A stretch of DNA of 63,751 nt, the filler included. It is 5 parts of 5 records of this genome, joined end to end, with 100 filler letters (N's around TTAATTAATTAA, not from the genome) between each part and the next. Parts side by side here need not be neighbours in the genome. Positions count along the whole stretch, not along the records: positions 29,893 to 42,304 come from DRR723986_5769; 4 more parts are not named here. One strand, given 5' to 3'. The translations under genes and the position numbers were made by a program. Every line of letters starts with the position of its first letter. The first letter of the stretch is position 1. Below the pieces are notes generated by a model. That model was not told the DNA's origin. It was given only the letters and a program-made list of their open reading frames with translations, and made no database searches. This document shows, piece by piece, positions 29,653 through 51,033 of this stretch.

Positions 29653-29678
29653 TGCAGAGTGTCGGTGTACACTCTGCA
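29653..29678. terminator. Hairpin downstream of large secreted protein
   Basis: tgcagagtgt-cggtgt-acactctgca 10-bp stem; no clear U-tract. Confidence 0.45.
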
Positions 29679-29786: not shown

Positions 29787-29792
29787 CGCATT

Positions 29793-29892
29793 NNNNNNNN
29801 NNNNNNNNNNNNNNNNNNNNNNNNNNNNNNNNNNNNTTAATTAATTAANNNNNNNNNNNNNNNNNNNNNNNNNNNNNNNNNNNNNNNNNNNN
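29793..29892. other. Artificial contig linker
   Basis: N44-TTAATTAATTAA-N44. Confidence 0.98.
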
Positions 29893-29922
29893 GCCTAAAG
29901 CTAACAGCCTAAAGCTAACAGC
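29893..29922. repeat. Tandem 14-mer (GCCTAAAGCTAACA)x2 at contig start
   Basis: gcctaaagctaaca gcctaaagctaaca gc. Confidence 0.8.
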
Positions 29923-30137
29923 TTATCTTCTACGGGGCTGGACGTTGTGCGCAAAGTGCTCAACGAAAGTTCCCAGCTGTCAGACTAAGGAGAAAGAATT
30001 TTGCCGATGCCCCACTCCCAAGAAATTGCAAAAACACTATATTGAATTTCAGAAAACAGCGGAGACAAGAATCGGTGAAGTCCAATTCCAAATGTCCTTC
30101 GCCTGGGATCCGATCCATTCAATAGCCCCTAAGAATC

Positions 30138-31325
30138 ATGACTTTACCTGCCAAATGCGCTTTGTTATCAATCACGGTATTTCTGCTCATTAGCTGTGCT
30201 GACGACGAGCCGATTACTCCGGTCGATGATACCACAACTGATCCGGTCGACGACACAACCGTTGTTAAGAAACCAGGCTGGCATCTGCAGTACACAAACA
30301 GTGCATATGAATTCCTGGATGTCTTTTTTCTCGATTCACTGCGGGGCTGGATCCTCACCGATCAGCAAATCCTTCTAACTACTGTAGACGGTGGAAGTTC
30401 CTGGACCGAATTACCGTTCGAAACTAAATTTCATCGCAAAGTGCAGTTTAAACAAATAATGTTTGTTAATTATGGAGTAACAGGCTTTGCAACGGTCCAT
30501 TCCAGACCGATAGACGGCCCACTTCGAAATGGAGGTGCAGATATCCCGGCAGCCACAATGATTACAAACGATGGAGGCTACACCTGGGAAGAAACTTGGG
30601 ATATTAAAGCTCATGGGTTTGATGGTGAGCCGAGGAACCTAAAACACGCGACCATTAATTCCGGTTCTTCTTTGACTTCAACCATGGTATCAGCGACAGG
30701 CGATGAGTTCGCTTTTTTGCATTATTGGTCCACCGATAAGGAATGGGATTTTTCGAGGAAAGCCTTAAGGTTTGGAGAGAGCTATGACAGTATTTACACC
30801 GGTGGTTATGCACAGAGTAGCGTTACTTACAGAGTTGCCGTCGGTGGCCGCTACATCGGTAACAAATGGATCGGTCACACGGCGACGCCGAACCAAAGTA
30901 ATAATATGCACAACGAGAAATTGTTTCCAAACTACGGTCGCTTCAACGACGTTGACACATTCATAGGTCGCGCCTGGGTCTGTGGAGACTCTCCTGTAAT
31001 TTTATTTTCAGAACGATATGGCCTTAATGACTGGAAAGAAATCCCATTAAACACCACTTTAAAGGGCCAGCAAATATTTTTTCTAGACGAAAACAACGGT
31101 TGGCTGCTACTTGGAACACAAGACCCCGCCACGTACATCAAAAACTCACAGGACTTCATGCATTCTTCTGACGGCGGGCTGACATGGGAGCCTCAAGCCA
31201 TCAGGGATGATGGTTTTGCTGCTGACGGTTTCACAGACTTTCAGTTTCTGGCCAACAACTATGGATGGATCGTCTCGAACAGAGGTGAGGTATACCACAC
31301 GAAGTCGGGCGGCAGAGCGGAGTAG
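30138..31325 (+). CDS. Lipoprotein with Ycf48/BNR (Asp-box) beta-propeller
   Basis: Lipobox LLISC; TVDGGSSW, TNDGGYTW, SSDGGLTW; FFLDxxxGW repeats. Confidence 0.85.
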   Translation: MTLPAKCALLSITVFLLISCADDEPITPVDDTTTDPVDDTTVVKKPGWHLQYTNSAYEFLDVFFLDSLRGWILTDQQILLTTVDGGSSWTELPFETKFHRKVQFKQIMFVNYGVTGFATVHSRPIDGPLRNGGADIPAATMITNDGGYTWEETWDIKAHGFDGEPRNLKHATINSGSSLTSTMVSATGDEFAFLHYWSTDKEWDFSRKALRFGESYDSIYTGGYAQSSVTYRVAVGGRYIGNKWIGHTATPNQSNNMHNEKLFPNYGRFNDVDTFIGRAWVCGDSPVILFSERYGLNDWKEIPLNTTLKGQQIFFLDENNGWLLLGTQDPATYIKNSQDFMHSSDGGLTWEPQAIRDDGFAADGFTDFQFLANNYGWIVSNRGEVYHTKSGGRAE

Positions 31326-31624
31326 CCAAGACTCCTCAACGCTTCGCATGAAGTTATTGAGTCAATAGCGTTGCAAATTTTTAGTCTCAGGTCTTTTGGC
31401 TGATGGGTTTGGGAGCCTGTGGGAGTAGCACAGCTGTGCTAAGATAGATTTTATGCCGGAACTGTGCTTGCACTTGAATCTGCCTTAAGGGTGGGTTGTT
31501 TTGGAAAACTGCCTGGCGGGCATCTCGATTTGGGCGAGAGGTCCTCTGCAGGCACGGACAAGCGCTACATGGAGGCCATGTATTTTACTGTTTGCTAAAA
31601 TGCTAAAGTACATTAATTTGAAGC

Positions 31625-32002
31625 ATGTCAAATTCAACTTGCATCCGTGAAGCCGCCGATCAGGCCCAAATCTCTCGCTGCCGTGCGCGCATTAAAAACT
31701 CATTGCCGCAGCTGACATATCTGGCGCGCTTCCTTCAACTTGCCGGTAATACCAGCAGACTACAAATACTGTACTCTTTGTTGCACGAGGAACGCCTCTG
31801 CGTTTGTGACCTGAGCGATGTCCTGGGAATGAAAATCTCAGCAGTATCACAGCACCTGCGCAAACTCAAAGACTCTGGTATAGTTGTTAACAACAAGGAG
31901 GGGCAGACGATTTACTATAGTATCGCGCCACTATATGCTGAGCTCCTGGAATCATTGCCCCTGGATTCCACACAGCAATTGGCTCTTGAGCCGAACGCGT
32001 AG
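31625..32002 (+). CDS. ArsR/SmtB-family metal-responsive regulator
   Basis: RLQIL...LCVCDLSDVLGMKISAVSQHLRKLK. Confidence 0.93.
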   Translation: MSNSTCIREAADQAQISRCRARIKNSLPQLTYLARFLQLAGNTSRLQILYSLLHEERLCVCDLSDVLGMKISAVSQHLRKLKDSGIVVNNKEGQTIYYSIAPLYAELLESLPLDSTQQLALEPNA

Positions 32003-32094
32003 CGGCAAAACCGACGTGCGGGCATCCTGACTGGAACGCTCGGCTTAACAACCCAAATTGAATTTCTCCTTTAAACTAGATCTATTTTTTTGTT

Positions 32095-32838
32095 ATGCGA
32101 CCTGTCTTACTCTGGATCTTGATAGCTGCAGTCGCCTTTGGCCTCTCCAGCCTTGTCTTTTTCAACCGGGCAAATGCCACATCGGAATTGACGTTTTACC
32201 TGACACCTTTGGAGTGCAATGCTGCGGCCGGCCTTGGTTGCGGTAGCCGCGCCAAACCTGTTCTGCTGGAACTTGAGCGTCATCCCAGCATTGCCGAGGC
32301 CTGGCTGGATCGCCCCGGGTCTACAGTCACAGTCGTATGGCAGGGTGCAGAATCATCCGCCGAACAGCTGGAAATTGTACAGGCAATCTTCGTAAACAAT
32401 TCTGTCGACTTTGAACCGCTCAGCTCGAATGAAATTCCAGCTGAACTCCTAAACAGTTTTGAGAGTCGCAACGACTGGTACCGCGCCGCGGACGTGGATA
32501 TGTTAAGTCGCGAAGAGGCAAAAGCTATAGCGCAAACTTCCGCTAACGAGTTAATCGCCGCCGGACTTGTCAGCGACTCCGAAGCAGAGGCAATTGCAAC
32601 CGACATTGAAGCACATTTTGCCATCGAGCTTGTTAAGATTCGCAGCCTGGAACAATTACAAAACGACGAACAGACTTTCTACAGCGACATATTAGCGATT
32701 TGCCAAAGACACATTGGCGCAGAGCGCATGGCCGCCCTGTATGACCTTGCAACCCAGCGCACGGGACAGACATACTCCGAGCAAGAAGCAGACTCAAGTC
32801 CATCTGGTGCACCAGAGGCTGCAGCCGCACAGGATTAA
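32095..32838 (+). CDS. Exported protein with Cys-pair, HMA-like N-terminal domain (putative heavy-metal binding)
   Basis: N-terminal signal/TM; PLECNAAAGLGCGSRAKP motif; follows ArsR. Confidence 0.55.
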   Translation: MRPVLLWILIAAVAFGLSSLVFFNRANATSELTFYLTPLECNAAAGLGCGSRAKPVLLELERHPSIAEAWLDRPGSTVTVVWQGAESSAEQLEIVQAIFVNNSVDFEPLSSNEIPAELLNSFESRNDWYRAADVDMLSREEAKAIAQTSANELIAAGLVSDSEAEAIATDIEAHFAIELVKIRSLEQLQNDEQTFYSDILAICQRHIGAERMAALYDLATQRTGQTYSEQEADSSPSGAPEAAAAQD

Positions 32839-33383
32839 CAAACGGGCCTCAAAACATTAGAGTCACCGGATTGATGACACTCACGAAGGTTAGGATGTAG
32901 AGTCGGGGCATGCCACGGCTCTGCATTCCATTGAACATCACACCCTCTCCAGCTTCACCATCTATAATCTTTCAGACTCGCCTAGCACCCTAAAATCCGC
33001 GATTGTTCAGACCTGGAATCGCGGAATGGGACTCGATGCCAAACAAGAAAATCAGCAAGCCTGAGACCGAACGCAGTAGAGGGCTCAAAGCGGGGGAGTA
33101 CCAAAGTCAGGTAAGTAACGGTCCGAACAAACAGACTTTTAGTGGCCAAAACATCAAGTAATATTTCTGAATAATTCACCAGATTTTTGGAACACATGGC
33201 ACATTACCGGCATCACCGTCTAAATTTTTTCAATGAGATACAGTTGTCATACTCCACTCCACGCCTACTCCAGACTGCGGTAGATTAGAACAGCGACAAA
33301 GGCACGACTTAGGTTTATAGGGCGCTCAAAAGCTTTTCTGAGAGATAGCGGCTGGTGAATCTCAAACAAATAGTGAAATATCC

Positions 33384-33412
33384 TTGTATTTATTATTCTT
33401 ACTTTTTATTAT
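33384..33412 (+). promoter_or_regulatory. Putative sigma70-type promoter of the cas operon
   Basis: TTGTAT-17 bp-TATTAT in an AT-rich stretch about 170 bp upstream of cas8b. Confidence 0.5.
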
Positions 33413-33583
33413 TGCATCAGAAAATATCTACAAATACCACGCAACGGCAGTCAAAAATTTACTGCTTTTTATTGCAATAATATTTCTGGATTTTCGAGCC
33501 AAACATCTCAACCAGCAGTAAGCTTCGAAGAGTCGAATTGGCGCGACAATCCAAACACATTGGCCCCGAGTCAAATATCCATC

Positions 33584-35356
33584 ATGATCCAAAAACTCGC
33601 AAAGCTCGGAAGAATATTGCCGGATGAGATGGTTGACATTGATCCTCTCAATCTCGCAACTGGTGATTCCATTCCAGAACATATTGTGTTTATCTGTTTT
33701 GAGAGTAGAGGCTTGTCTTGGCAATTCAAGCAGGTCGAAATGGAAGAATTTGCCCTAAACAAACAGAACAACTACTTGCTGATTAGAGCCAAAGGCAATG
33801 GAAGATCAGAGTTCCCTACAATCGAAGTCTTTAACAACAGCGAAATTTATAAAGATGGTACGGTTGATTTTGAGTCAAGTAAAAAGGGAGCCAAACTTCT
33901 TTCTATTCTGAAGAAGCATTATAAAGAGCTTTCCGGCATTGTTGAACAACTTATCTCTAATCAAGAAATTGGCGTAGCACTAACCCAAAAAACTGAATTA
34001 CTTTCACAATTTGTGCTGTCGATCAAACTGAACAGCGAGATGGTTGGCACAGCGGCAGAGTTCCGTTCAAAAATAGCAGAAGTTCGAGAACGGGCTATCA
34101 ACAGAGATTACAAAGTCTTCCCTGCACAGAACAAGATTTGTTCGATTAGCGGCGAAGTTGGCGAAGTTTTTGGCAATAGCACATTCTATAGCTTTTACGC
34201 TACAAAAACCAATATTTCGGCTGTCGCCGGTGGATTTGATAAAAAACAGTCTTGGAAAAACTTTCCGACTTCCGAAGCTGGAATCTTGAATGTTGAACGC
34301 GGCAAGTGGTTCATAGAAAGACATCTGAGCTTTCGATTTTGTGGCGTAGACTATTTTTTGATACCAGAAGTACTGTTAACAGGCAGTAACACGCACAGTA
34401 TTCTACACGGCTTAAAACGCTTAGATGACTTTCGACTTAAAAATAGAAACTCAAAGTTCGTTGAACTAAACCTTGTCAAGATGCTCGCCTCTCAAAACAA
34501 TTCTGCGACATTCACGATGTTTTTCTTTGAAAGGAATAAGTCTCAGTTCAAAATATTACTTTCTATCGATGACATATCGCCGACTTATGCGGTCCGATTG
34601 CACAACACAATTGAACAAACTGAAGAATTGGCAATATTCAAAAACTTCACCGGAAAAGACGGTAAACCATACTCTGTAACGTTCGATTCTTTTGGGGCTT
34701 TGCGCACCTTCTTTCCCAATGCCAAGATTGAAGGCAATCACACTGCACGTTTTCTCGAAGTTGTTCGCGCTGTATTAATGCAAAGAACTGTTACACATTC
34801 CGTTCTTTTGCGCTACATCATGATGAAGATCCGGCGAATTTTCGTCGAAGGGAATAACCTTCGATTCTCTGTATTGCGGGCCTGGCTGATCCTTCTTGTT
34901 TTTGACCAAATGAAAATTGTTAAAGTTCCACACGATCAAACGGAAGCAGCTCCTATGAATATGAAGCTGGGTACTATGGGTGAAATCGTCCGAGAGTTTT
35001 TTAGCACTCACCCCGAATTTCACAAAAGGCAGGCAGCATGCCGTGGCGCGTTCCTACTCGGAGTCCTTGCCAAGAAAGTCCTTGACATACAGTACGGGGA
35101 GCGTCAGTCCGAACCCTTTCGGGCCAGACTTAACGGAATGCACATAAGTCAAAAGACTGTCAAACGCCTTATGGCCGAAATCCCAGTAAAACTGGAGGAG
35201 TACAACAAAAACTACCAATCGTACAAGGACTTAAACAAACTGGCTGCATCTGAACTAGCACATTTGGATGACAACCTGAGTGACGACGATCGGAGTTTTT
35301 ATTTTGCTCTTGGCATGGCACTTGAAGAGCATTTTCGAGTCAGCAACAAAGACTGA
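33584..35356 (+). CDS. cas8b: Type I-B Cascade large subunit Cas8b (Csh1/TM1802-like)
   Basis: ICSISG, AGGFDKKQSWKNFP, AFLLGVL, FYFALGM; first gene before cas7/cas5/cas3. Confidence 0.85.
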   Translation: MIQKLAKLGRILPDEMVDIDPLNLATGDSIPEHIVFICFESRGLSWQFKQVEMEEFALNKQNNYLLIRAKGNGRSEFPTIEVFNNSEIYKDGTVDFESSKKGAKLLSILKKHYKELSGIVEQLISNQEIGVALTQKTELLSQFVLSIKLNSEMVGTAAEFRSKIAEVRERAINRDYKVFPAQNKICSISGEVGEVFGNSTFYSFYATKTNISAVAGGFDKKQSWKNFPTSEAGILNVERGKWFIERHLSFRFCGVDYFLIPEVLLTGSNTHSILHGLKRLDDFRLKNRNSKFVELNLVKMLASQNNSATFTMFFFERNKSQFKILLSIDDISPTYAVRLHNTIEQTEELAIFKNFTGKDGKPYSVTFDSFGALRTFFPNAKIEGNHTARFLEVVRAVLMQRTVTHSVLLRYIMMKIRRIFVEGNNLRFSVLRAWLILLVFDQMKIVKVPHDQTEAAPMNMKLGTMGEIVREFFSTHPEFHKRQAACRGAFLLGVLAKKVLDIQYGERQSEPFRARLNGMHISQKTVKRLMAEIPVKLEEYNKNYQSYKDLNKLAASELAHLDDNLSDDDRSFYFALGMALEEHFRVSNKD

Positions 35357-35435
35357 GTTTCGCAGTATAACACTCTTGCTAAAACTCTATCACATCAACC
35401 AATCTATCAGAATTCTCATTTTGGAGACATCAGCG

Positions 35436-36329
35436 ATGCCAACAATCAGTAAACGCGAAGAATTTCTTTTTCTGTACGACATCAAAGATAACAACCCCAA
35501 TGGCGACCCCATGGATAGTAACAAACCACGCATCGACGAGGAAAGCGGCCATAACCTCGTGACGGACGTACGCCTTAAACGGACGATTCGAGACTACTTG
35601 CTTGAGTACGAGGGGTTCAACGGAACTGGTGATAGAGACATCTTTGTCCGCAGCATAGAGTCAACATCACAAAAGAAAGGAAAAACCAAAGGCTTGCAAG
35701 ATGGCAAAGAAAGAGCACTTGATTTTAAAAACAGCGCAGCGCTGATTACCAAACAGTGTATTGACATTCGCCTGTTCGGCGCTGTGATACCTGTCAAAGG
35801 AGATCCAATAAAGTATACTGGCCCAGTCCAAATGCGGATGGGCCGAAGTCTGCATAAAGTAGAGCTAAAGCACGTTAAAGGTACCGGTGCATTTGCATCC
35901 ACAGCGGGCAATGAGCAGCGCACATTTCGCGAGGAGTACATCCTCCCGTATTCACTTATCGCATTCTATGGAATTGTGAACGAAAAAGCGGCACAGGACA
36001 CAGGATTAACTGAGGCTGACCTGGATCTGTTTTATGAAGCTATGTGGAATGGAACACGTAACCTCATTAGTCGCACAAAGATTGGCCAGGAACCACGGGT
36101 CCTCATACGCCTACAGTACAAAACTCCCGGATTTTTCATAGGTGATCTCGACCGGAAAGTAACTTTCGATGTTGGCGAAAAGCGAGACGAACAGATCCGC
36201 GACATAGAAGATGGCACACTTGATCTTTCGAAATTGCAAGGCTCTCTAAAAGTACATTCCAAACATGTTTCCACTACTTCGACACGGGTCTCAGAGAGTG
36301 TACAATTACGTGGATGGGACCAGCGATGA
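35436..36329 (+). CDS. cas7: Type I-B Cas7 (Csh2)
   Basis: NPNGDP...PRID, VTDVRLKRTIRDY, IDIRLFGA, TGPVQ; GGAGA RBS before ATG 35436. Confidence 0.93.
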   Translation: MPTISKREEFLFLYDIKDNNPNGDPMDSNKPRIDEESGHNLVTDVRLKRTIRDYLLEYEGFNGTGDRDIFVRSIESTSQKKGKTKGLQDGKERALDFKNSAALITKQCIDIRLFGAVIPVKGDPIKYTGPVQMRMGRSLHKVELKHVKGTGAFASTAGNEQRTFREEYILPYSLIAFYGIVNEKAAQDTGLTEADLDLFYEAMWNGTRNLISRTKIGQEPRVLIRLQYKTPGFFIGDLDRKVTFDVGEKRDEQIRDIEDGTLDLSKLQGSLKVHSKHVSTTSTRVSESVQLRGWDQR

Positions 36330-37033
36330 AATTACCACAGTCCATTTTCAGCTTCGAACTATGGGGGAACCTGGCACACTTTAAGAAGTACTATACAACT
36401 TTGTCACCACTAACGTTCTCAATTCCGCCGGGAACGGCGATTCGTGGTATGCTTGGAGCGGTTTTAGGCCTTCCAAAATCAGATGCTCCCGAGACATTTC
36501 TTTCAACGTACATCGGTGTTCAAGTTATAAATCCAATCAGCAAATTGACACTTCAAATTAATAACGTGATGGTAAAGTCAAGGGAACACTTTTCCCGATA
36601 TGAAGCTCATAGCCAAACCAACTATGAATTCCTCAGAGATCCCCACTATCGAATTTTTGTGGCAAGTGAGGATGTAAATACTCATTCCGAACTGGCAAAA
36701 CGGTTGGGTGAACGTGATTGTGCTTACACACTTTCTCTTGGGATAACAGAAGCTCTGGCCAATTTTGGCAATTTCGAAACACATACGGTAGCTAGAGTTG
36801 GTACAGTGACAGACACAATAAGGACAATCATCCCAAGACACAGGATGCAGGCAACCAGCAAGACATTTAGTGACAACCATATCTTTGCTGAAAAAGTACC
36901 AATACGAATGTTAAACAGTCGTGAAGTGACTCAATACGAAGAATTCTTATTTGATTCAACTGGGCAGGGAGTACATGCCCGGCTTGAAAATGCAGTAACA
37001 CTTGATGACGGCAGTATTATCGCAATGATATAG
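36326..37033 (+). CDS. cas5: Type I-B Cas5
   Basis: FELWGNLAHFKKYYT...PPGTAIRGMLGAVLG; ATGA overlap with cas7. Confidence 0.92.
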   Translation: MKLPQSIFSFELWGNLAHFKKYYTTLSPLTFSIPPGTAIRGMLGAVLGLPKSDAPETFLSTYIGVQVINPISKLTLQINNVMVKSREHFSRYEAHSQTNYEFLRDPHYRIFVASEDVNTHSELAKRLGERDCAYTLSLGITEALANFGNFETHTVARVGTVTDTIRTIIPRHRMQATSKTFSDNHIFAEKVPIRMLNSREVTQYEEFLFDSTGQGVHARLENAVTLDDGSIIAMI

Positions 37034-37085
37034 AACGACTATCAATTCCCACTATCGCAAACTCTTAACCACAACTGTACTCGGT

Positions 37086-39515
37086 ATGAACAAATACTCG
37101 GTCCTGTTTAGTCACCCAGATTATTCTCTTGAAGACCATTTGTGCGGTGTACTAACAAATTGCAGAATACTCTCCGAAACACTCCAGCTTAGCAATGACA
37201 TTCGCCAGGCGATTGATTTTTGCGCAATCTTACATGATTTCGGCAAGGCAAGCTCGTACTTTCAGGATTACATCCGTATGGATGACCACGATAGACACCG
37301 CCTGACCAAGGACGAGCGTATGTTGAAAAGTCACGCATGCTTTTCAGCTATGTGGACTTTCATTATCACCAAGCAACAACTCAATAACGAGTCCGTTGCA
37401 ATTGTAGCTTACTTTGCAGTTCTCAAGCATCATGGCAACCTATCCAATGCTCAAGATATGCTATTTAAGGCTGCGACTGATCTTGACTTAATGAAATCAA
37501 TTAGTGAATCTATTGACTACACCGCAATGAATTCCATCGTTCGCAGACTGGGCTTCAACTTCACAGGAATCACGCACGAAAGATTCATAAATGAATGCGA
37601 CAAAACATTTCAACTAGGCTTCGTTCTTGCCAATGAGAACTTCGGCCGCGATGGAACACTCGACGACTACTTCAATCTCAACTTGCTTTACTCGATACTG
37701 CTCTCTGCCGATAAAGGCGAAGCAATCTTCAAATGTACTCCTTACCGCCGAACCAGTAATAGTTTGCCCGCAAATGCAGTCGACCGCTATAAACAGAAAC
37801 ACTTTGACGGAAAACCATCGGGGCTAAACATTCTTCGAGAATACGTTTACCAGGCGGTAAATCGCCAAATCCTCGAACACTCAGATAAGCGTTTTCTTAG
37901 TATTAACGTTCCAACCGGAATTGGTAAAACACTCACTGTCTTGAACGCAGCTTTTAAGTTGAAAGCTGTACGCCTGGACTTGCACAAAATCATATATTGC
38001 CTCCCATTCACCTCAGTAATCGACCAGAATGCTGCCGTTTTTACCTCGGTGTTGGCTAACTGCATAGAAGGGGAGCCAAGCTCTGACCACCTGATGTTAT
38101 ACCATTACCTTGCAGAGCGCGTTTATCGACCTGCAGATCATCTGGTTGAGATCGACAATCAACGTGCCGAATTCTTGCTAGAGTCATTTGAGTCGGATTT
38201 ATCCTTAACGACTTTCTATCAGTTGCTCCACGGCCTCCTCTCTGGACGCAATCACGAGGTTCGAAAACTGTGCAGTTTTGCAAATTCGATCGTAATCCTT
38301 GATGAAGTTCAAAGCATTCCGATAAAGTACTGGCCTCTGGTTCGGCGCATTTTCATTGAGCTATCCGAACGCCTTAACGTCACTACGATTCTGGTGACCG
38401 CAACAATGCCTCTAATTTTTAGTGAAAAAAAAGGCGAAGTTGTTGAACTTGTTGCCGACAAAGCAGATATCTTCAAGAAGATGGATCGGATTGATTTAAA
38501 CTGTTCCTTACTCAAGAAGCCTTTTTCAATTGAATCCTTCGCTGAACATCTGGCAAGCGAGATTGAGGCCAATTCAAAGCAATCGGTACTTGTGATTGTC
38601 AATACACGCCGAATGGCACGGACTCTCTATACAGAACTTAATTCGCGACTAGGGTTTAGCAAAGTAAAACAACCGGATGGCCTATACTGTCTGTCAACGG
38701 ACATTTATCCCAAGGAACGACTTCGTCGTATTCAGTTAATCAAACAACGAACTGAGGAAGACAATCGAGGCACCAAAACCAACCGTCCAACTATTGTCAT
38801 ATCAACGCAACTAGTAGAAGCTGGTGTAGATCTTGACTTTGACATTGTCTGGCGAGACATAGCACCACTTGACTCTATTTTTCAGGCTTGCGGACGTTGC
38901 AATCGCAATATGCGAAAAGGCTTTCGTGGACAAGTTAGACTTGTTGAGCTACTGGATGACAATGGCTCTTCTCCAGCATCATTTCTCTATGGACCTTATC
39001 TTATCTCACAGACCCGCGAGCTTCTTCAAAACCAACCACCAATCATTCCTGAAGCAGCCTTCTTCAAACTGTCACAAACCTATTCATGCACCCTGAACCT
39101 GGGAGTCAACAAATTTGAGTCGTTGTCTATTCTGGAAGCAATGACCAAATTAAACTACGATACGGCGTTCAATCTTGATTTTTGCAAAAGTGCGCGAAAA
39201 AAGGGTGTGCTTCCCGCAAAGCACAAACCGTTTTCCCTGATTGATGAGAATAACACAACTCCCATTTTCATTGCATCACAAGACCCCGAAGCGCTCCACC
39301 TACTTAACGAGTTCCAACAATTGCAAAATAACCGCACGATGAACAGGTTTGCTCGACGAAGTGCGATCAAAACACTCAATCGACAATTGGGGCAGTTTAT
39401 TGTTCACGTGCCAGAAAACAAGGTTCCAAAACAAAACCGGTGGCAGACCTTTCTTGTGGACGAAAACATCAATTGTATTTCCTACGATACTGAAACTGGT
39501 ATTTACTACGAGTAA
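37086..39515 (+). CDS. cas3: Cas3 HD nuclease-helicase
   Basis: LEDHL, LHDFGK, PTGIGKT, DEVQ, TATMP, STQLVEAGVDLDF, QACGRCNR. Confidence 0.96.
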   Translation: MNKYSVLFSHPDYSLEDHLCGVLTNCRILSETLQLSNDIRQAIDFCAILHDFGKASSYFQDYIRMDDHDRHRLTKDERMLKSHACFSAMWTFIITKQQLNNESVAIVAYFAVLKHHGNLSNAQDMLFKAATDLDLMKSISESIDYTAMNSIVRRLGFNFTGITHERFINECDKTFQLGFVLANENFGRDGTLDDYFNLNLLYSILLSADKGEAIFKCTPYRRTSNSLPANAVDRYKQKHFDGKPSGLNILREYVYQAVNRQILEHSDKRFLSINVPTGIGKTLTVLNAAFKLKAVRLDLHKIIYCLPFTSVIDQNAAVFTSVLANCIEGEPSSDHLMLYHYLAERVYRPADHLVEIDNQRAEFLLESFESDLSLTTFYQLLHGLLSGRNHEVRKLCSFANSIVILDEVQSIPIKYWPLVRRIFIELSERLNVTTILVTATMPLIFSEKKGEVVELVADKADIFKKMDRIDLNCSLLKKPFSIESFAEHLASEIEANSKQSVLVIVNTRRMARTLYTELNSRLGFSKVKQPDGLYCLSTDIYPKERLRRIQLIKQRTEEDNRGTKTNRPTIVISTQLVEAGVDLDFDIVWRDIAPLDSIFQACGRCNRNMRKGFRGQVRLVELLDDNGSSPASFLYGPYLISQTRELLQNQPPIIPEAAFFKLSQTYSCTLNLGVNKFESLSILEAMTKLNYDTAFNLDFCKSARKKGVLPAKHKPFSLIDENNTTPIFIASQDPEALHLLNEFQQLQNNRTMNRFARRSAIKTLNRQLGQFIVHVPENKVPKQNRWQTFLVDENINCISYDTETGIYYE

Positions 39516-39525
39516 CCCTCCCTCC

Positions 39526-40308
39526 ATGCACACACTTCCAATCACAACAGTTCATTTCCCGGACACACGCCTCTCTACGCGCGATGGCCACAAGCTGCGC
39601 GGCTACTTTGGCAATGTCTTCCGCGAACATTCAACTCTGCTGCATAATCACTTTGAAGATGGGACTCTGCGGCATGACTACCCCTTGGTACAGTACAAGG
39701 TAATTGACAACATCGCCACCCTAACCGGTCTGGGAGACGGCGCGGAGCTGCTGCGCGATCTATTTCTGCGTATCGATGGCATTACAATTGACGGCATGCA
39801 CATTCCGGTCTACAGCAAACATATTTACTTTCGCGAGGAACAGTTTGGTCCGGTTAACGAGCTGCGGCAGTATAATTTTAAGACCTTGTGGTTTGCGCTG
39901 AACACCAGAAACTATCGCGAATACCAAATTGCGACCGCAGCTGAGCGCCAGGAGCTGTTAAACAGAATTCTCATTGGCAATATTTTAGTTTTCTTCCGTG
40001 CCTTTGGTTTTATGATTGAAGAACGCTTGATGGCGATGCCACGCGTCCAGGAACGCTCAACGATGTTTAAGGATCAAAGGATGTGCGCCTTTCAGGGCGA
40101 CTTTGTTGCCAATACAATCTTGCCCGACTTTATAGGCCTGGGTAAATCCGTCTCGCGCGGATTTGGGTGTATTACAAATTCGACGCCTGTTAACCAGGTC
40201 GGCGGCAGCTACAACCACGCCGGCAGCTCCTCCACGTCGAATTCGCGCAGGAAAAGCCAAGTCGGCAGTCCAATATTTATGCGCAGCAAGGAAACGCGAA
40301 GAGTGTAG
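39526..40308 (+). CDS. cas6: Cas6 endoribonuclease (Cas6b-like)
   Basis: KLRGYFG, LLHNH, YPLVQYK, G-rich loop GLGKSVSRGFG; start MHTLP. Confidence 0.88.
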   Translation: MHTLPITTVHFPDTRLSTRDGHKLRGYFGNVFREHSTLLHNHFEDGTLRHDYPLVQYKVIDNIATLTGLGDGAELLRDLFLRIDGITIDGMHIPVYSKHIYFREEQFGPVNELRQYNFKTLWFALNTRNYREYQIATAAERQELLNRILIGNILVFFRAFGFMIEERLMAMPRVQERSTMFKDQRMCAFQGDFVANTILPDFIGLGKSVSRGFGCITNSTPVNQVGGSYNHAGSSSTSNSRRKSQVGSPIFMRSKETRRV

Positions 40309-40310
40309 TT

Positions 40311-40466
40311 ATGGACTAACATCTGTACACTTATCGCACGTATCTACATGTGCGTGACGGCATGTTTGAGGTCACTTTCAAAATACTGATACACACGCAG
40401 GATTTGTGCATTTGCTGTGGAACGGGAGTGGAGTCACACAAGCGGTCATTTGGTGCGGAGCGATAG
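40311..40466 (+). pseudogene. cas1: cas1 5' remnant with in-frame stop at codon 3
   Basis: Translates MD*HLYTYRTYLHVRDGMFEV...ESHKRSFGAER*, resembling the Cas1 N-terminus (MxLxxxTYGTYLHVKDxMFE); sits in the cas1 position; absent from ORF track. Confidence 0.75.
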
Positions 40467-40526
40467 CCATATTCGCAAGTGCATCCAGTTAACATCAGCG
40501 GCCTGACCAGCTACTTTTGTGGCGAT

Positions 40527-40901
40527 TCACTTTTCCGTTTCACTTTTCTCTGACAGCTCGACCGTAAGAAAACAAATCGAAACGACCGGCAGAAATTGCC
40601 AGCCGCAGTAGAATTCGTAATACTGCAACTCTTCGAGCGGGATATGCTCCTTAAACTGATTGGCTTTGACCTGTTCTGCAATTTTCGATTTATCGCCTGG
40701 CTGCCACCCATCCATGTCAGTGCCTATTCCATCACTAACCCTGAGGAACCTGGTTTTGGTAAATTTGTACACATACATCTTTTCTTGCCAATTCTTAAAC
40801 TCAAGAATAGTTGTATCCCCCAGAAGTGTAACCGAGCAAACCTGACCGTCAGCAGTGGCCAGAGTATTGAGATCAATGATTTCCACTGTTTGCCTCGTCA
40901 T
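40527..40901 (-). CDS. Hypothetical ~124-aa protein inserted antisense in the cas1 position
   Basis: Open ORF MTRQTVEII...; alternative upstream start 40943; no motif recognised with confidence. Confidence 0.6.
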   Translation of the reverse strand: MTRQTVEIIDLNTLATADGQVCSVTLLGDTTILEFKNWQEKMYVYKFTKTRFLRVSDGIGTDMDGWQPGDKSKIAEQVKANQFKEHIPLEELQYYEFYCGWQFLPVVSICFLTVELSEKSETEK

Positions 40902-41085
40902 CGTCGAACATGCACCACCTTCTGTGTGGCTGGAGCCGGACAAGTTTACAAATATTATTGCAATTACTGGTGAACAGGTCAGACAATTTCAGATTCGAGA
41001 CAAATTGAATGCAAGCCGACACAAGGTGTACAGTCAGTTTAGGGGGTTGAACCTGCGGGCTTAACAACTAACAAGAACATCAAAA

Positions 41086-41134
41086 AGCGCACCGCAGGTG
41101 AACGCGTTCAAGAGAGCGTACCGCAGGTAAACGC
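41086..41134. repeat. Two 20-bp direct repeats (41086-41105, 41115-41134) plus inverted core at 41051-41058
   Basis: agcgcaccgcaggtgaacgc / agcgtaccgcaggtaaacgc (18/20); acctgcgg is the reverse complement of ccgcaggt. Confidence 0.8.
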
Positions 41135-41254
41135 CACTACGCCCTCCGTTCTGCGACCATCAAATCCCTGACAGCAAGCAAACAAGAAGCACACAATCGG
41201 AGATGTTAAACATGGACTCAACAAGTTAAAATCCGCAAACTGACACCAGCTCCG

Positions 41255-41503
41255 CGCACAAAAGTCAGTAAAATTTGCCAAAAGATGGGTTTAACACGCG
41301 TACAGTATTCAGTGTTTCTCGGCACGCTGGACAAGAGCGAAAAGGACAGCCTTGAGCTTCAGATTACAGAGTTAATCAACGACGAACGCGACAGCGTTTA
41401 CATATTCCCGATGAGCCGGGACGAACTACGCGACTCTGTTTTACTTGGTCAGGCATTTGACAAAAATCTCGTGACGGATGAAGTCCAGGCGATGTTTCTA
41501 TGA
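41255..41503 (+). pseudogene. cas2: cas2, 5'-truncated
   Basis: RTKVSKICQKMGLTRVQYSVFLG...DSVYIFP is Cas2-like; upstream frame lacks the N-terminal YDI strand and hits TAA at 41207-41209. Confidence 0.8.
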
Positions 41504-42072
41504 GTATTACTCCTTCACACATCATTCAGTACTTATACTGCCCACGCTACATCTACTACGAATATGTCATGCGTCTCTCCGAACACGAGGAAAAGTACTA
41601 CAAGGTAGTCAAGGGCCGTGACATGCATGCTGCCAAGCAGGAAGTGAACGCTGACTACTTACGCAAAAAACTTGGAGTCAAGGCGCGGCATCACGCGCAG
41701 TACTTAACAAATGCGCAGTTACGCGGTGAGGTGGATGAAGTTCTGGAGTTAAGTGATGGCACGATGGCACCGCTCGACTATAAGTTTGCGAAGTGGGAAG
41801 AGCGCATGTACGCGGGCTACCGCACTCAATTGCATTGTTACGCAGTTTTGATAGAGGAAAACTTTGAATATCCGGTTCGCAGGGGCTACATCGTATACAT
41901 TCGAAGCAACAACCGGGTGGTAGAAGTCCCGATTGAGCCGAAATACTTACAAGGGATCAGGGACTCCATTGCGGCCATCATGGATATAGTAGAACACAAT
42001 CGTTTCCCTGCGGCAACCAAGTACGTCAGCCGCTGCCGAAACTGTTCATTCCGTTCAATTTGCCCTCAATAG
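41500..42072 (+). CDS. cas4: Cas4 RecB-like nuclease
   Basis: YCPR, RGEVD, PLDYK, QLHCY and C-terminal CRNCSFRSIC Fe-S cysteines. Confidence 0.93.
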   Translation: MSITPSHIIQYLYCPRYIYYEYVMRLSEHEEKYYKVVKGRDMHAAKQEVNADYLRKKLGVKARHHAQYLTNAQLRGEVDEVLELSDGTMAPLDYKFAKWEERMYAGYRTQLHCYAVLIEENFEYPVRRGYIVYIRSNNRVVEVPIEPKYLQGIRDSIAAIMDIVEHNRFPAATKYVSRCRNCSFRSICPQ

Positions 42073-42277
42073 CGGATTCCCGGGTAGCAAATTATGGCGC
42101 TTTAGCTTCGCTGTGCGCCTATCTTCTTGTTTATCAATGTGTTAGGAGCGTTGAAGTCAGCGCACATAGTCCAAAAAGCATCCATATTGTTGAATATGAG
42201 CCACATTTTTCTTACATTTGACCCACATTTTGAAACTGCTAGTTCCTTGAAAACCAAAGACTTAGGGCAAACTACGG
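42073..42277 (+). promoter_or_regulatory. Putative CRISPR leader
   Basis: Non-coding, AT-rich 205 bp between cas4 and the repeat-like sequence. Confidence 0.65.
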
Positions 42278-42304
42278 GTCCGAGACCTTAAATCCGATTA
42301 ACAT
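42278..42304 (+). CRISPR. First CRISPR repeat, truncated by contig end
   Basis: GTCCGAGACCTTAAATCCGATTAACAT resembles the 5' part of ~37-nt repeats ending GGATTGAAAC; only one partial copy, no spacers visible. Confidence 0.6.
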
Positions 42305-42404
42305 NNNNNNNNNNNNNNNNNNNNNNNNNNNNNNNNNNNNNNNNNNNNTTAATTAATTAANNNNNNNNNNNNNNNNNNNNNNNNNNNNNNNNNNNNNNNN
42401 NNNN
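42305..42404. other. Artificial contig linker
   Basis: N44-TTAATTAATTAA-N44. Confidence 0.98.
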
Positions 42405-42583
42405 CCGTTCTCGGCGATCTCGGGCGCGGTCAGGATGATGCCGCCTTCGGATGCTTCCGCGCCGCCGGTGAAGGCGGCCATTGCATCATCGAGTGCGGTT
42501 GCCATGGCCGAGCGCGGCAGGATGCCTGCCACGGCCGCGGCGCTCATCGCCGTAATCAGCGCTTGTCTGCGCGTCAGGTTCAT
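42405..42583 (-). CDS. soxY: SoxY sulfur carrier, 5' part only
   Basis: Tat signal (LTRRQAL) and LTAPEIAEN motif; follows soxX. Confidence 0.9.
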
Positions 42584-42620
42584 ATCTGGTTCCTCCTGAA
42601 TCTCTGGTTCGTCCTGCGGG

Positions 42621-43085
42621 TCAGTCCTGAAGCGTCATCAGGTAGGCGACCACGTCTTCCACCTGTTGCGCCGACAGGATCGACTGACCCACGAAATCTT
42701 CACGAGGGCGAATGAACCCCTCGTTCACGTAGAATGCCGGCATGATCGTGTCCGGAAACACGTTCTTCGAATTCACGATGATGCCGCGCAGATCCGCTTC
42801 GGACCAACGGTCACCAACGCCATCGAGCATCGGACCCACCTCACCGTGGAACGGCTGATCGGCAAGTTCGGTGTTTTCATGGCAGGCAAGGCAGTTGCCG
42901 AGACGACGACCGGCAAATACTTCACGACCCGCAGCCGCGTCGCCGGGCACGCCCGTCAGCGAAGCCTCGACCTCTCCGTATTCGCCGAACACCACATCAG
43001 CAGGCGCAACCGCAACCTCGTCCGCAAGCGCCGGAGCGGCGATCATAAGCACGCCAGCTGCAAGAGCTGTAAGTTTCACGTCCAT
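42621..43085 (-). CDS. soxX: SoxX c-type cytochrome
   Basis: SLTGVPGD, GNCLACH, GEVGP, TIMPAFY. Confidence 0.93.
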   Translation of the reverse strand: MDVKLTALAAGVLMIAAPALADEVAVAPADVVFGEYGEVEASLTGVPGDAAAGREVFAGRRLGNCLACHENTELADQPFHGEVGPMLDGVGDRWSEADLRGIIVNSKNVFPDTIMPAFYVNEGFIRPREDFVGQSILSAQQVEDVVAYLMTLQD

Positions 43086-43144
43086 TCCTCCCGTTTGTAT
43101 TCTTCTGTCCACAATAGAGTGTGCGGACGATTCCTTGCAACATT

Positions 43145-43164
43145 AAATTCGCATTTATGAATTT
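43145..43164. promoter_or_regulatory. Putative SoxR operator in the soxW-soxX gap
   Basis: AAATTC-N8-GAATTT inverted repeat; SoxR is known to bind this intergenic region in alphaproteobacterial sox loci. Confidence 0.55.
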
Positions 43165-43191
43165 GTCGCGCAGGAATCTTGCTTGTCCCCA

Positions 43192-43767
43192 TCACTCGAT
43201 GATCCCCATTTCCGTAAGCCTTCTCGCATGATAGCGCTGAAAACCCTCGTCCGTGTCATAGCCGTGTTCTTGCACCCAATTGAGCAGATTGAAGGTGGTC
43301 CAGCCGCCAAACGCGCCGGGCATGGTGGCCACGCTGGCCTGTTGTGCGGTCTGATCTTCGGGCACCTCTTCCGGCATGAACATCAGCGTCGGGGTAAACA
43401 GAATGCCCCATCGGCGGGCGATTTCGCGTTCGCTCATCGCTTCGCCGTCGAAATCGGTGACCTCCAGGCTGCCATGCAGGTTCAGCCGGATGACGAAGAA
43501 ATCCTCATCCAGCATCGTGGCGATGTTTTCGCGGGAAAACACGTTCTCATGCATTTCGTTGCAGTAGATGCAGCCGCGCTGTTCAAACAGGATCAGCAGT
43601 CGCTGACCATTGGCATTGGCATCGCTCAGATCGTCGCGCAGGTCGAGAAAGGTCTCTTCGATCCAGTCCTCCACATGCAGGCCATTGTCATCGAGCTCGG
43701 CAAGCGCAGGCAGTGCCAGACATGCACCAAGGGCGAGCCCGACAAACCCTGAAATCAACTGCTTCAT
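43192..43767 (-). CDS. soxW: SoxW periplasmic thioredoxin
   Basis: FEQRGCIYC, FTPT; position between soxV and soxX. Confidence 0.88.
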   Translation of the reverse strand: MKQLISGFVGLALGACLALPALAELDDNGLHVEDWIEETFLDLRDDLSDANANGQRLLILFEQRGCIYCNEMHENVFSRENIATMLDEDFFVIRLNLHGSLEVTDFDGEAMSEREIARRWGILFTPTLMFMPEEVPEDQTAQQASVATMPGAFGGWTTFNLLNWVQEHGYDTDEGFQRYHARRLTEMGIIE

Positions 43768-43789
43768 GATGCGTTCCTCCCGAACATGC

Positions 43790-44527
43790 TTAGCCAATGC
43801 CCGACCAATCCGGGCCGTATTCGATCATCCATTGTGCGACGACATTGATCGAATCCGTCGCGATCAACACGGCGAAGACGATCAGCAGCACGCCCATTCC
43901 CTTTTCGACCTTGCCCATGTGACGGCGAAACCGCCCCATCCAGCGCATGAAAGGGCCGACGAAGGCCGCCGCCACGATGAACGGCAGCGTCATGCCAAGC
44001 CCGTAAGTCATCAGCAACAGCGCGCCCTTGGTCGCGGTCCCCGCATCGGCGGCGGTAAACAGAATGGCGGCCAGAACCGGCCCTACGCAGGGTGTCCAGC
44101 CAAAGGCGAAGGCCAGCCCGATGACATAGGCCCCGACAACGCCCTTGCCGCGATCCACCTGATTGTCGGCGCGCAACTGGCGATACAGGATCGGGATCTT
44201 GACCACGCCCAGAAAATGCAGCCCCATCGCCAGAATGATCCCCGCCGCAATCCAGCGCAGCACCGGCATCGCATCGCGCACCGCCTGACCAAAGGTCGAG
44301 GCTGCCAGCCCTAGCGCCATGAAGATGGTCAGGATGCCGAGGCTGAAGGCAATCGCAGGCAGAATCGCCTGACGACTCGCGCCACGGGATTCGCGGGCGG
44401 CGGCAAGGTCATCGGCGCTCATCCCGGCGAGGTATGACAGGTAGAACGGCACAATGGGCAGGATACATGGGGATAGAAAGGACAGAAGTCCGGCAAGGGC
44501 TGCACCACCGAAGCTGATGTCGAACAC
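43790..44527 (-). CDS. soxV: SoxV (CcdA-family thiol-disulfide transporter)
   Basis: SFLSPCILP, FGWTPCVGP; GTG start. Confidence 0.9.
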   Translation of the reverse strand: MFDISFGGAALAGLLSFLSPCILPIVPFYLSYLAGMSADDLAAARESRGASRQAILPAIAFSLGILTIFMALGLAASTFGQAVRDAMPVLRWIAAGIILAMGLHFLGVVKIPILYRQLRADNQVDRGKGVVGAYVIGLAFAFGWTPCVGPVLAAILFTAADAGTATKGALLLMTYGLGMTLPFIVAAAFVGPFMRWMGRFRRHMGKVEKGMGVLLIVFAVLIATDSINVVAQWMIEYGPDWSGIG

Positions 44528-44555
44528 GCGCTTGCCCTCCCCTGCACTTGCCATA

Positions 44556-44585
44556 TTCACACATTCAAAATACATTATATGTGAA
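44556..44585. promoter_or_regulatory. Putative SoxR operator in the divergent soxV-soxS gap
   Basis: TTCACA-N18-TGTGAA AT-rich inverted repeat. Confidence 0.55.
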
Positions 44586-44596
44586 AGGCGTCAATC

Positions 44597-44986
44597 ATGA
44601 GTATGCGAATGAATGCCACTATCCTTGCCTCTGCCGCCGCTGCTTTTCTCGGGCTGACCAGCCTTGTCGCGGCCGATACTGCCCTTGTCATGGTCGAACA
44701 GGATGGCTGCATCTATTGCCGCCGCTGGCATGCGGATGTGGGCGAGATCTACCCGCTGACAGAGTTCGCCGAAACCGCGCCGCTGCGCATCGTGGACCTG
44801 CACGATCTGCCCGATGACCTGATCTTTGCGTCGCGCGTCGTGTTTACGCCGACCTTCGTTCTGATCGATGACGGGCGGGAAATTGCCCGCGCCGAAGGCT
44901 ATGTCGGGGACGAGCTGTTCTGGATGCACATGGAGTTGCTGGCTCGCGAATTGGAAGCGGCCCGGACCGGGGCCGAAACGCAATGA
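44597..44986 (+). CDS. soxS: SoxS periplasmic thioredoxin
   Basis: MVEQDGCIYCRRW, FTPTFVL, GDELFW. Confidence 0.88.
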   Translation: MSMRMNATILASAAAAFLGLTSLVAADTALVMVEQDGCIYCRRWHADVGEIYPLTEFAETAPLRIVDLHDLPDDLIFASRVVFTPTFVLIDDGREIARAEGYVGDELFWMHMELLARELEAARTGAETQ

Positions 44987-45202
44987 TACGCCCGACATCG
45001 CCAAGCCCCCCGCATGACTGCGCAAGCACCGCTCCCTGCGTCGCCAATGCGGTCATCGGTGCTCAAACAGAGGTCACACTGTCAGCAAACCATCTGAAAA
45101 CCTTCGTAAACACTAGACTAGTGCCATGCATTCGGTCCATATGCCCCGCAACCGTGTCGAAAGGCGCGAACCACCCGATCAGACGGAAATGGGCGAGGAC
45201 AT

Positions 45203-45550
45203 ATGGCGCTTCCGGCGCAGCTAGCGGACCTTGAGGACGACGAGATGGAGCGGCTTGCCGAAAACGCAACCGAAGCTGCCCAGTTGCTCAAGGCTGTCAG
45301 CCATGAAGGCCGCCTGATGATCCTGTGCCATCTGGCCACCGGCGAAAAATCCGTCACCGAACTGGAACAGTTGCTCCATGCGCGTCAGGCTGCCGTGTCG
45401 CAGCAACTGGCACGGTTGCGGTTGGAGGGTCTGGTTGCGACACGACGCGAGGGAAAGCTGATCTGGTATCGGTTGTGTGATGATCGTGCCATCAGAATTC
45501 TTGAACTCGTCTACGAGATGTTCTGTAATCCCGAGGTGCCCGAGGCCTGA
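45203..45550 (+). CDS. soxR: SoxR ArsR-family repressor of sox genes
   Basis: LKAVSHEGRLMILCHL...AVSQQLARLR, C-terminal YEMFC; sox context. Confidence 0.88.
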   Translation: MALPAQLADLEDDEMERLAENATEAAQLLKAVSHEGRLMILCHLATGEKSVTELEQLLHARQAAVSQQLARLRLEGLVATRREGKLIWYRLCDDRAIRILELVYEMFCNPEVPEA

Positions 45551-45585
45551 CCGAAGGTGGCCCGGTGCGTTTGGGAGGACGCCTG

Positions 45586-46638
45586 ATGCCAGAGATTTCC
45601 GACGCCGGACTTGCGGCCCTGATCGGGCTTGCCATGGGCGTTATCCTCGGACTGGCCTCGCGGATCGGCAAGTTCTGTTCGCTTGCCGCGATCGAGGACG
45701 CCACCTATGGGGGCAATGACAATCGGTTGCGGATGTGGGGCATTGCCCTTGGCGTTGCCATTCTGGGCAGTCATCTGCTGATGGTGGCGGGCCTGCTGGA
45801 CCCGGCGGATGTCTATTACCTGACCACCTGGACGATGACCGGGGCCGTTGCTGGCGGACTGCTGTTCGGCATCGGCATGGCCCTTGCCGGCAATTGCGGT
45901 TTTGGCGCCTTGGCCCGGATCGGCGGTGGAGATTTCCGGTCCGGTGTCGTGGTCGTGACCATGGGGATCATGGCCTATGCCACCATTTCCGGCCCGTTGG
46001 CCGGTCTGCGACTTGCCCTGTTTCCAAGCCGGGGGTCCGAGACGCCATTGGGCATCCCACAGTTGATCGAAACCAATACCGGGCTGCCCCCTTTGGCGAC
46101 GGCAGCCATCGTCGCGGCAATCCTGACCGGGGTGGCCCTGCGCGGTGCGGACTGGTCAGAATTTCGCCGCCATGCCATCTGGGCCGCCATCGTCGGCCTG
46201 ACCATCGCCGCCACATGGGGCGCGATGCAATGGCTGCATTTCGAAAGCTTCGAGGCCATCGGCGTTGCCAATCACACATTCGCCGCCCCGATCGGAGAAA
46301 CCATTCTCTTTGCCATGACCTCCAGCGGGTCTGCCGTATCATTCGGCATGGGGTCGGTTCTGGGCGTGGTCGCGGGGGCCTTTCTGGGCAATACGCGCCT
46401 TGGTCATTTCCGGTGGGAGGCCTGTGATGATGCCCGCGAACTGGGTCGGCAGCTGGTCGGCGCCTCGATGATGGGCGTGGGCGCGGTTCTGGCCGGTGGC
46501 TGTTCCATCGGACAGGGTCTGTCGGCATTCTCGGTTCTCAGCATCTCGGCCCCTATTGTTCTGATCAGCATCTATGCAGGCGCCCGGATCGGGCTGCATT
46601 TCCTGATCTACGGCCAGGGTTTCCGCAACGCGGACTAA
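45586..46638 (+). CDS. soxT: SoxT (YeeE/YedE sulfur-compound transporter)
   Basis: KFCSL, GNCGFG, GGCSIGQG conserved Cys motifs; soxSRT order. Confidence 0.85.
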   Translation: MPEISDAGLAALIGLAMGVILGLASRIGKFCSLAAIEDATYGGNDNRLRMWGIALGVAILGSHLLMVAGLLDPADVYYLTTWTMTGAVAGGLLFGIGMALAGNCGFGALARIGGGDFRSGVVVVTMGIMAYATISGPLAGLRLALFPSRGSETPLGIPQLIETNTGLPPLATAAIVAAILTGVALRGADWSEFRRHAIWAAIVGLTIAATWGAMQWLHFESFEAIGVANHTFAAPIGETILFAMTSSGSAVSFGMGSVLGVVAGAFLGNTRLGHFRWEACDDARELGRQLVGASMMGVGAVLAGGCSIGQGLSAFSVLSISAPIVLISIYAGARIGLHFLIYGQGFRNAD

Positions 46639-47798: not shown

Positions 47799-47800
47799 TC

Positions 47801-51027: not shown

Positions 51028-51033
51028 GTTCCG

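Follow-up and report, generated by a model that had tools for sequence, protein, structure and literature searches.

A type I-B CRISPR-Cas locus that has probably lost spacer acquisition in recent times and probably kept interference

Can a CRISPR-Cas (short palindromic repeats, clustered and regularly interspaced, with their associated genes) locus deprived of its adaptation genes still use its old immune memory, and how long ago were those genes lost? The question is raised by a type I-B locus carried on a metagenome contig (DRR723986_5769; 12,412 bp, GC content 45.6%), which occupies positions 29893 to 42304 of the 63,751 bases of DNA analysed here and called the window throughout. It is Cas1-Cas2 that integrate new spacers, Cas6 that cleaves the repeats, and Cascade together with Cas3 that carry out interference. 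In order, the contig carries cas8b-cas7-cas5-cas3-cas6, the stub of cas1, unrelated DNA of about 870 bp, what is left of cas2, then cas4, a leader and a partial repeat. It is considered very probable that a cas1-cas2 span of about 1 kb was replaced by these ~870 bp, which carry an orphan gene, and that acquisition was lost, interference was probably kept and the loss is recent.

The cas1 stub lies on the plus strand and comprises codons 1 to ~24 (40311 to ~40382), as delimited by tblastn, DNA alignment and a Cas1 profile. Directly after the cas6 stop it reads ATG at 40311, GAC, and TAA at 40317-40319, so that its third codon is a stop; beyond it the frame is open as far as 40466. When Cas1 of the nearest related locus, L001, was compared by tblastn with positions 39500-42304, the sole significant match was that of residues 1-26 to 40305-40382 (54% identity, E 3e-6); Cas1 of another relative, L004, matched with residues 22-42 at 40311-40373 (57% identity, E 2e-4), and the next-best matches (E of at least 0.08) fell inside cas4 or cas6. 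The profile was made from 12 related Cas1 proteins and run on 2,019 six-frame pieces of the whole window; its positions 4-24 of 335 matched at 40320-40382 (E 0.004), with no other Cas1 match at E<1 in the six frames of the 63.7-kb window. The full integrase fold with a catalytic C-terminal domain, which defines Cas1 (PF01867), is absent. An earlier reading made from the letters only (hereafter the sequence-only reading) had described a stub of about 50 codons at 40311-40466; the cas1 similarity, the stop at codon 3 and the open frame were all found, but only the part from 40311 to ~40382 is derived from cas1. An inverted or frameshifted cas1 within the inserted DNA was also considered and rejected, no match being found on either strand by tblastn or by the profile.

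The cas2 remnant (41255..41503, plus strand) is equivalent to residues 15-96: the Cas2 profile matched with positions 15-96 of 96 and PADLOC Cas2b with 14-96 of 96, and no second Cas2 profile match at E<1 was present in the window. The frame opens at 41210 and its first start codon, ATG 41285, gives 72 residues, which cover Pfam positions 26-70 of 74. Missing from the window is the N-terminal segment that bears the LYDI motif in all seven aligned relatives, in agreement with the earlier statement that cas2 lacks its YDI strand, and the complete ferredoxin-like fold with the first strand (PF09827 / TIGR01573) is not there. The first strand of Cas2 carries a conserved metal-binding Asp. The 82 codons that are left contain no stop or frameshift, encode a sequence 79% identical to residues 15-96 of L001 Cas2 and end in a stop overlapping the cas4 start, likewise in L001.

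The limits of the replacement can be placed by DNA comparison. Homology to L001 (blastn) breaks off within cas6 and is found again from 41253 (L001 position 9806, in cas2 codon 14), after which the DNA is 74% identical up to the final base of the contig. About 1 kb of ancestral sequence, from about cas1 codon 25 to cas2 codon 14, was lost, and about 870 bp of unrelated DNA with a GC content of 46.9% (40383..41250) stands instead, in which neither tblastn nor the profiles gave a Cas1 or Cas2 match at E<1 in any frame. The claim that the cas1-cas2 module was destroyed was thereby borne out. The loss of the cas1 region was likewise correct, but the gap is not empty and the lesion more than simple decay, a point missed by the sequence-only reading: the unrelated DNA carries a gene on the minus strand. 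From the type I-B adaptation module (cas1-cas2 with cas4) only cas4 itself is complete.

The ancestral form of the locus was sought among its relatives. Eight loci were obtained with Cas6 from species-representative genomes, and five, two being weak, with Cas4 from metagenomes; within the nearest relative's order, Cas6 gave matches in 11 of 254 genomes. Two weak Cas4-like loci without query matches (L012, L013) were left out and two that repeated L001 (L014, L016) were counted once, so that 20 distinct loci were scored by tblastn. In 13 of them (L001-L005, L009-L011, L015, L020-L023) cas6 is directly followed by full-length cas1 and cas2: cas1 covers 329-343 of 343 query residues and cas2 96 of 96 in eight of the 11 loci of the first set, and 336-343 of 343 and 95-96 of 96 in five of the nine of the further set. 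No truncated copy of cas1 or cas2 was found among the 20 loci.

The nearest relative, L001, belongs to a metagenome-assembled genome of Hyphomicrobiales (contig CAYULF010000005.1, genome G001). It encodes Cas8b of 600 amino acids (aa), Cas7, Cas5 of 239 aa, Cas3 of 817 aa, Cas6, Cas1 of 343-345 aa, Cas2 of 96 aa and Cas4 of 190 aa, with stops and starts overlapping from cas1 through cas4, and these genes are followed by a leader of 205 nucleotides (nt) and 79 copies of a 37-nt repeat. The window shares with it the gene order and overlaps, Cas proteins 50-79% identical, the 37-nt repeat family and a leader block with 58 of 60 nt in common; it differs in that the cas1-cas2 span is replaced and the array is cut off. 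The L001 array (10831-16666) contains blocks of at least three repeat variants which differ at repeat positions 11-13 (AAC, TCC, TAC), and two neighbouring repeat-spacer units are 97% identical, a duplicated spacer.

In contrast to the adaptation genes, the interference genes are whole by sequence. The large-subunit gene cas8b, of the TM1802/Cst1 type (33584..35356, plus strand as all the cas genes), is an open frame with a full-length family match: PF09484 at E 3.3e-92 over profile positions 1-601 of 602, TIGR02556 at 161.4 bits (cut-off 156.95), TIGR02591 at 123.6 (cut-off 104.05) and PADLOC Cas8b CAS-I-B at E 1.7e-88, with 50% identity to L001. The Csh2-type cas7 (35436..36329; PF05107 E 2.3e-65, TIGR02590 263.6 bits) begins with ATG preceded by GGAG and is 73% identical to L001. 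The Cas5h/b gene cas5 (36314..37033; TIGR02592 117.4 bits, cut-off 97) encodes 239 aa, equal in length to L001 Cas5. The gene cas3 (37086..39515; PADLOC Cas3b E 2.9e-191) joins an HD nuclease to a helicase and contains the Cas3_HD, DEAD and Cas3 C-terminal domains. Aligned with six relatives, Cas3 has 87 invariant columns common to the window, among them H50-D51 and H115-H116 of the HD domain, Walker A residues G278 and G280-K281-T282, D406-E407 and Q600/R604/R607 of motif VI, and at just four columns the window deviates from a residue on which all six others agree. The gene cas6 (39526..40308; stop TAG 40306-40308) has the Cas6b_N and Cas6b_C domains, a PADLOC Cas6b match at E 4.5e-87 and 71% identity to L001 over residues 1-222. 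The interference features of type I-B, namely Cas8b, Cas7, Cas5, Cas6 and Cas3 with HD and helicase parts, are present, and PADLOC assigned I-B models throughout the cas genes. A type I-B CRISPR-associated transposon, which has no cas3 and carries Tn7-like tns genes beside cas, was rejected: cas3 is intact and no transposase domain was found in the three upstream open reading frames of the 12.4-kb contig.

The last gene of the operon, cas4 (41500..42072, plus strand), is intact as well, with TIGR00372 at 112.4 bits (cut-off 65) and PADLOC Cas4b over positions 1-188 of 189. Across the window and seven relatives 72 columns are invariant and all are kept, including C14 near the N-terminus, D79-E80 and D93-Y94-K95 of the nuclease core, Q110, Y114 and the C-terminal C179, C182 and C188. 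With the full-length family matches, the largely kept invariant columns of Cas3 and the fully kept ones of Cas4, the earlier assignment of the locus to type I-B is upheld, and so is the view that its interference genes and cas4 look intact.

From these findings the following course of events is proposed. The ancestral layout would have been cas8b-cas7-cas5-cas3-cas6-cas1-cas2-cas4-leader-array; the stretch from about cas1 codon 25 to cas2 codon 14 was exchanged for unrelated DNA with a minus-strand gene, and the stub also gained its stop at codon 3. Because the Cas1 integrase is gone and Cas2 is without its first beta-strand, the locus should be unable to integrate new spacers by itself. Because the genes, the leader and the first repeat are intact by sequence, the existing array can probably still be processed by Cas6 into CRISPR RNAs (crRNAs), and DNA that matches can probably still be destroyed by Cascade (Cas8b, Cas7, Cas5) together with Cas3. 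In that case the system would be confined to the memory it already has. The loss looks recent because neither the cas2 remnant nor cas4 shows decay: the remnant is unbroken and its proportion of nonsynonymous differences (pN) from L001, 0.112, is the lowest among seven genes. Among the options put forward by the sequence-only reading, recent loss is accordingly the one best supported by the remnant and by the invariant columns of Cas4. We infer that, on the family's time scale, the event is recent, and young in comparison with the divergence from the nearest relative. That cas4 is intact then most likely means that decay has yet to set in, and is not taken as a sign of function; there is no indication that a 'frozen' state is under selection.

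Several observations weigh against this account. The ratio of nonsynonymous to synonymous substitution rates against L001, proposed earlier as a check, yielded pN values, but synonymous divergence (dS) is saturated for five of the seven genes; the ratio is uninformative on recent relaxation, selection since the deletion is not measurable, and 'recent' depends solely on the absence of lesions. The junctions at ~40383 and ~41250 come from a short metagenome assembly only, and the array lies outside the contig, with no spacer in the window. The insert puts a convergent gene between cas6 and cas4. Finally, seven of the 20 loci (L006-L008, L017-L019, L024) have no cas1 downstream of cas6 in the DNA examined, so the reference layout does not hold throughout the wider family. 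In L017-L019 the genes found after cas6 are unrelated ones (phosphoenolpyruvate carboxykinase, dicarboxylate symporter, glyoxalase), and their genomes (G217, G212 and G213, respectively) carry cas1 elsewhere, in L019 (G213) about 7 kb away on the same contig; L024 has an array downstream of cas6, and the L006 contig ends 176 bp past cas6. The loci L017-L019 are cas3-cas6 operons with Cas6 47-50% identical and represent a second layout of the family.

The region after cas4 has a bearing on whether adaptation could continue by other means. The leader (42073..42277, plus strand) starts with a terminator-like hairpin, followed by a promoter-like TTGAC box. Within it the block 42077-42136 (L001 10630-10689), which forms a GC-stem hairpin followed by a T-rich run, is identical to L001 at 58 of 60 nt, and more stretches conserved with L001 occur between 42136 and the first repeat. 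In five relatives the leader is 195-205 nt long; the TTGACA box is present in three and absent in L001. A relative of the hairpin was seen at L001 697-735, upstream of the cas operon (85% over 39 nt), and the hairpin with its T-run after cas4 looks like a reused terminator element. It was also observed that CCGGGTG, a few bases and TTTAT follow the cas4 stop within the first 20-30 nt (window 42075-42092) in most of L001, L002, L004, L005, L009 and L011, even where the remaining leader has diverged; this motif may be a leader-end signal. The first repeat, 27 of its 37 nt (42278..42304, plus strand), is cut by the contig end. It is the sole repeat match in the window, aligns with the first repeat of the 79-repeat L001 array, and with the leader constitutes what reaches the contig end of an adjacent array of the L001 repeat family. 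Short-read assemblies usually break at such a place.

The best surviving alternative, though an unlikely one, is that a second cas1-cas2, with or without cas4, is encoded elsewhere and recognises this leader and repeat, in which case adaptation continues and cas4 is still in use. Cas4 with every invariant column kept is what such complementation in trans would predict, as is a leader block beside cas4 that agrees with L001 at 58 of 60 nt against 65-74% for coding DNA, and outsourced adaptation has been proposed for a provirus-borne I-B system without cas1, cas2 and cas4 (PMC12596717). Against it, the conserved block consists of a terminator-like hairpin and a promoter region, which interference alone would need too, and the genome of L001 has a single cas1. 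There is also no second Cas1 or Cas2 match at E<1 in the 63.7-kb window, a negative of little weight, since the other contigs may come from different organisms.

It may also be asked whether the assembler introduced the 870-bp segment, cas1-cas2 being intact in the true genome. The contig is indeed a short metagenome one. Nevertheless a chimera needs two junctions which re-enter the same operon in the same orientation at about the same place; no repeat is present at the junctions, the nearest direct repeat (D3) being at least 80 bp from both; the stub independently carries the stop at codon 3; and the GC content of the insert is close to that of the contig (46.9% and 45.6%). On these structural grounds misassembly is unlikely, and only a very small chance is left to it.

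A similarly slim chance is given to a more far-reaching account, namely that, instead of random decay, a small, possibly toxin-immunity gene was captured exactly where the integrase had been, that the memory-locked system is kept by selection, and that Cas4 is kept for a role without its own Cas1-Cas2, either with Cas1-Cas2 made elsewhere or in DNA processing during interference or repair. The gene in question is an open frame of 124 codons on the minus strand (40527..40901), convergent with the cas operon and with a GAAGGTGG box ahead of its ATG (start 40901). Among 1.84 billion cluster representatives the only homolog of its product is P0001, a protein of 113 aa (E 1.6e-11, 31% identity, residues 16-118), which marks the product as a real if very rare protein. 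A word-index protein search at lengths of 62-217 aa gave nothing at first and then only P0001; no Pfam, NCBIfam, PHROG or PADLOC family was matched, and no PDB entry by sequence at E up to 10. In the ESM Atlas unnamed clusters of 113-115 aa came first (0.91), followed by YxiG-type families at 0.79-0.83, which are leads only.

The fold of this orphan protein was predicted with AlphaFold2 from an alignment of two sequences, and the model is of modest quality (predicted local distance difference test score, pLDDT, 61.2; predicted template modelling score 0.59). Two aligners rank the same chains first: 8owu_E and 5v77_B, an uncharacterised Neisseria protein. Foldseek gave E 7e-3 and template modelling (TM) scores of 0.40-0.47 and VIA-align gave Z 6.1 for both, with 81-85 residues aligned at a root-mean-square deviation (rmsd) of 4.8-5.0, where a Z below 8 can reflect a common arrangement. 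The best match is chain E of the PT7/PIM7 polymorphic toxin-immunity complex of Bacillus cereus (PDB 8owu), which may be either the toxin or the immunity protein. An Ala-Asp-Gly at residues 17-19, common to the orphan protein and P0001, is found in the loop before the first long strand. In the preprint on this complex the key Asp17 of PIM7 was placed in the loop between helix 1 and strand A (bioRxiv 10.1101/2021.10.19.465003), and the conserved Asp-Gly of the orphan protein falls in a loop of that kind. The differences are that there is no sequence similarity, that no toxin gene adjoins the orphan gene in the list of open reading frames, and that the model with its pLDDT of 61 is matched to 8owu_E at TM 0.40 over 85 residues with rmsd 4.8. 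An orphan immunity-type gene is suggested by the model as a real but minority possibility.

As to how the insert arrived, blastn against plasmids and phages gave no match, viral contigs searched with a two-protein profile gave 338 pattern matches of which none was confirmed, and a search for inverted and direct repeats revealed no terminal repeats or target duplications in the insert and its surroundings. Promoter-like and terminator-like elements of the insert are at shuffle level (3 against 2.5 shuffled and 3 against 1.9, respectively). Upstream of the orphan gene there are two 20-nt direct repeats, 29 bp apart (41086..41134), each with an 11-nt palindrome, CACCGCAGGTG or TACCGCAGGTA, the outer bases of which change symmetrically between the copies (C...G and T...A), a pattern that would fit an operator bound by a dimer, or a hairpin; the first copy also has the score of a terminator-like hairpin when read on the minus strand.

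The last alternative is that Cascade was kept for a non-immune role, such as CreTA-like addiction or CreR-like self-regulation, for which adaptation is dispensable. It starts from the leader motif TTTGAAAC, which resembles the 3' end of the repeat and stands 41 nt before the first repeat (42230-42277), in common with L001, with about 80% identity to L001 over the 41-nt stretch. A guide of a degenerate mini-CRISPR at this place was examined as a candidate and gained no support. Such a role is hardly credible, since the 37 nt ending in TTTGAAAC match the repeat at only 14 positions by hand count, the stretch has no match of at least 11 nt elsewhere in the contig, which was the whole range of the target search, nor has its counterpart in L001, the leaders of L003, L009 and L011 lack the motif, which is not conserved beyond L001, and Cas3 is intact; the regulatory or addictive role offered by the sequence-only reading gained no support.

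With replacement of the cas1-cas2 span retained as the most probable account, the locus can be set beside published ones. Haloarchaeal provirus type I-B systems without cas1, cas2 and cas4 have been described, and their reliance on another system was proposed (Naki and Gophna 2025, PMC12596717). They likewise keep the interference module without their own adaptation genes, but there the whole module including cas4 is cleanly gone and the systems are located on proviruses, whereas here an intact cas4, the stub and what is left of cas2 are still present. In Clostridium novyi sensu lato, I-B loci carried by plasmids and phages are reported to have lost Cas4, Cas1 and Cas2, some being interrupted by transposases, and the authors argue that interference can continue in such partial loci (PMC8473940). 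In the present locus Cas4 is kept and no transposase was seen, and the lineage of I-B is another one, as the Clostridium loci recovered by the Cas6 search are 37-38% identical in Cas6. Deletions of cas1 are also reported for strains of the Mycobacterium tuberculosis complex (PMC5310062).

The surroundings of the locus need a word of caution, because the window is a string of separate contigs (1-20678, 20779-29792, 29893-42304, 42405-54519 and 54620-63751), joined by four linkers N44-TTAATTAATTAA-N44 at 20679-20778, 29793-29892, 42305-42404 and 54520-54619. The other four have a GC content of 55.5-62% against 45.6% in the CRISPR contig. The neighbouring DNA is consequently not the context of the organism that bears the CRISPR locus, and position 42304, at which the earlier finding stops, is the end of a contig inside the first CRISPR repeat. 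On the CRISPR contig itself, 5' of the cas genes (30138-32838), there are genes for a BNR/Ycf48-like protein of lipoprotein type (395 aa), an ArsR/SmtB regulator and a protein of 247 aa without a family match in Pfam or NCBIfam; no link between them and the CRISPR locus was seen. Pfam and PHROG scans detected no viral genes on the contig, and Rfam gave no match on the whole of it at E up to 1. At the end of the preceding contig (29678-29786) two copies of a 41-nt repeat, 95% identical and with a 68-nt period, end in GGGCTAACAG, and the CRISPR contig starts with two tandem copies of CCTAAAGCTAACAG (29893-29923); GCTAACAG, common to both contig ends, could mean that both border the same repeat region, or could be due to chance.

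It can be said that the loss of adaptation observed here is a common kind of event and belongs to the ordinary class of decay, adaptation-less I-B loci being already in print (PMC12596717, PMC8473940). Particular to this locus are the precisely mapped replacement that spared cas4 and the small gene of unknown kind in the place of cas1, which leave the class unchanged. The locus is a natural and cleanly mapped case of a type I system from which spacer acquisition has probably gone only lately and interference probably has not; its breakpoints are placed to within a few codons, and a relative supplies an intact locus for reference. Loci of this sort are a natural start for studies of the time over which interference and Cas4 outlast the loss of adaptation.

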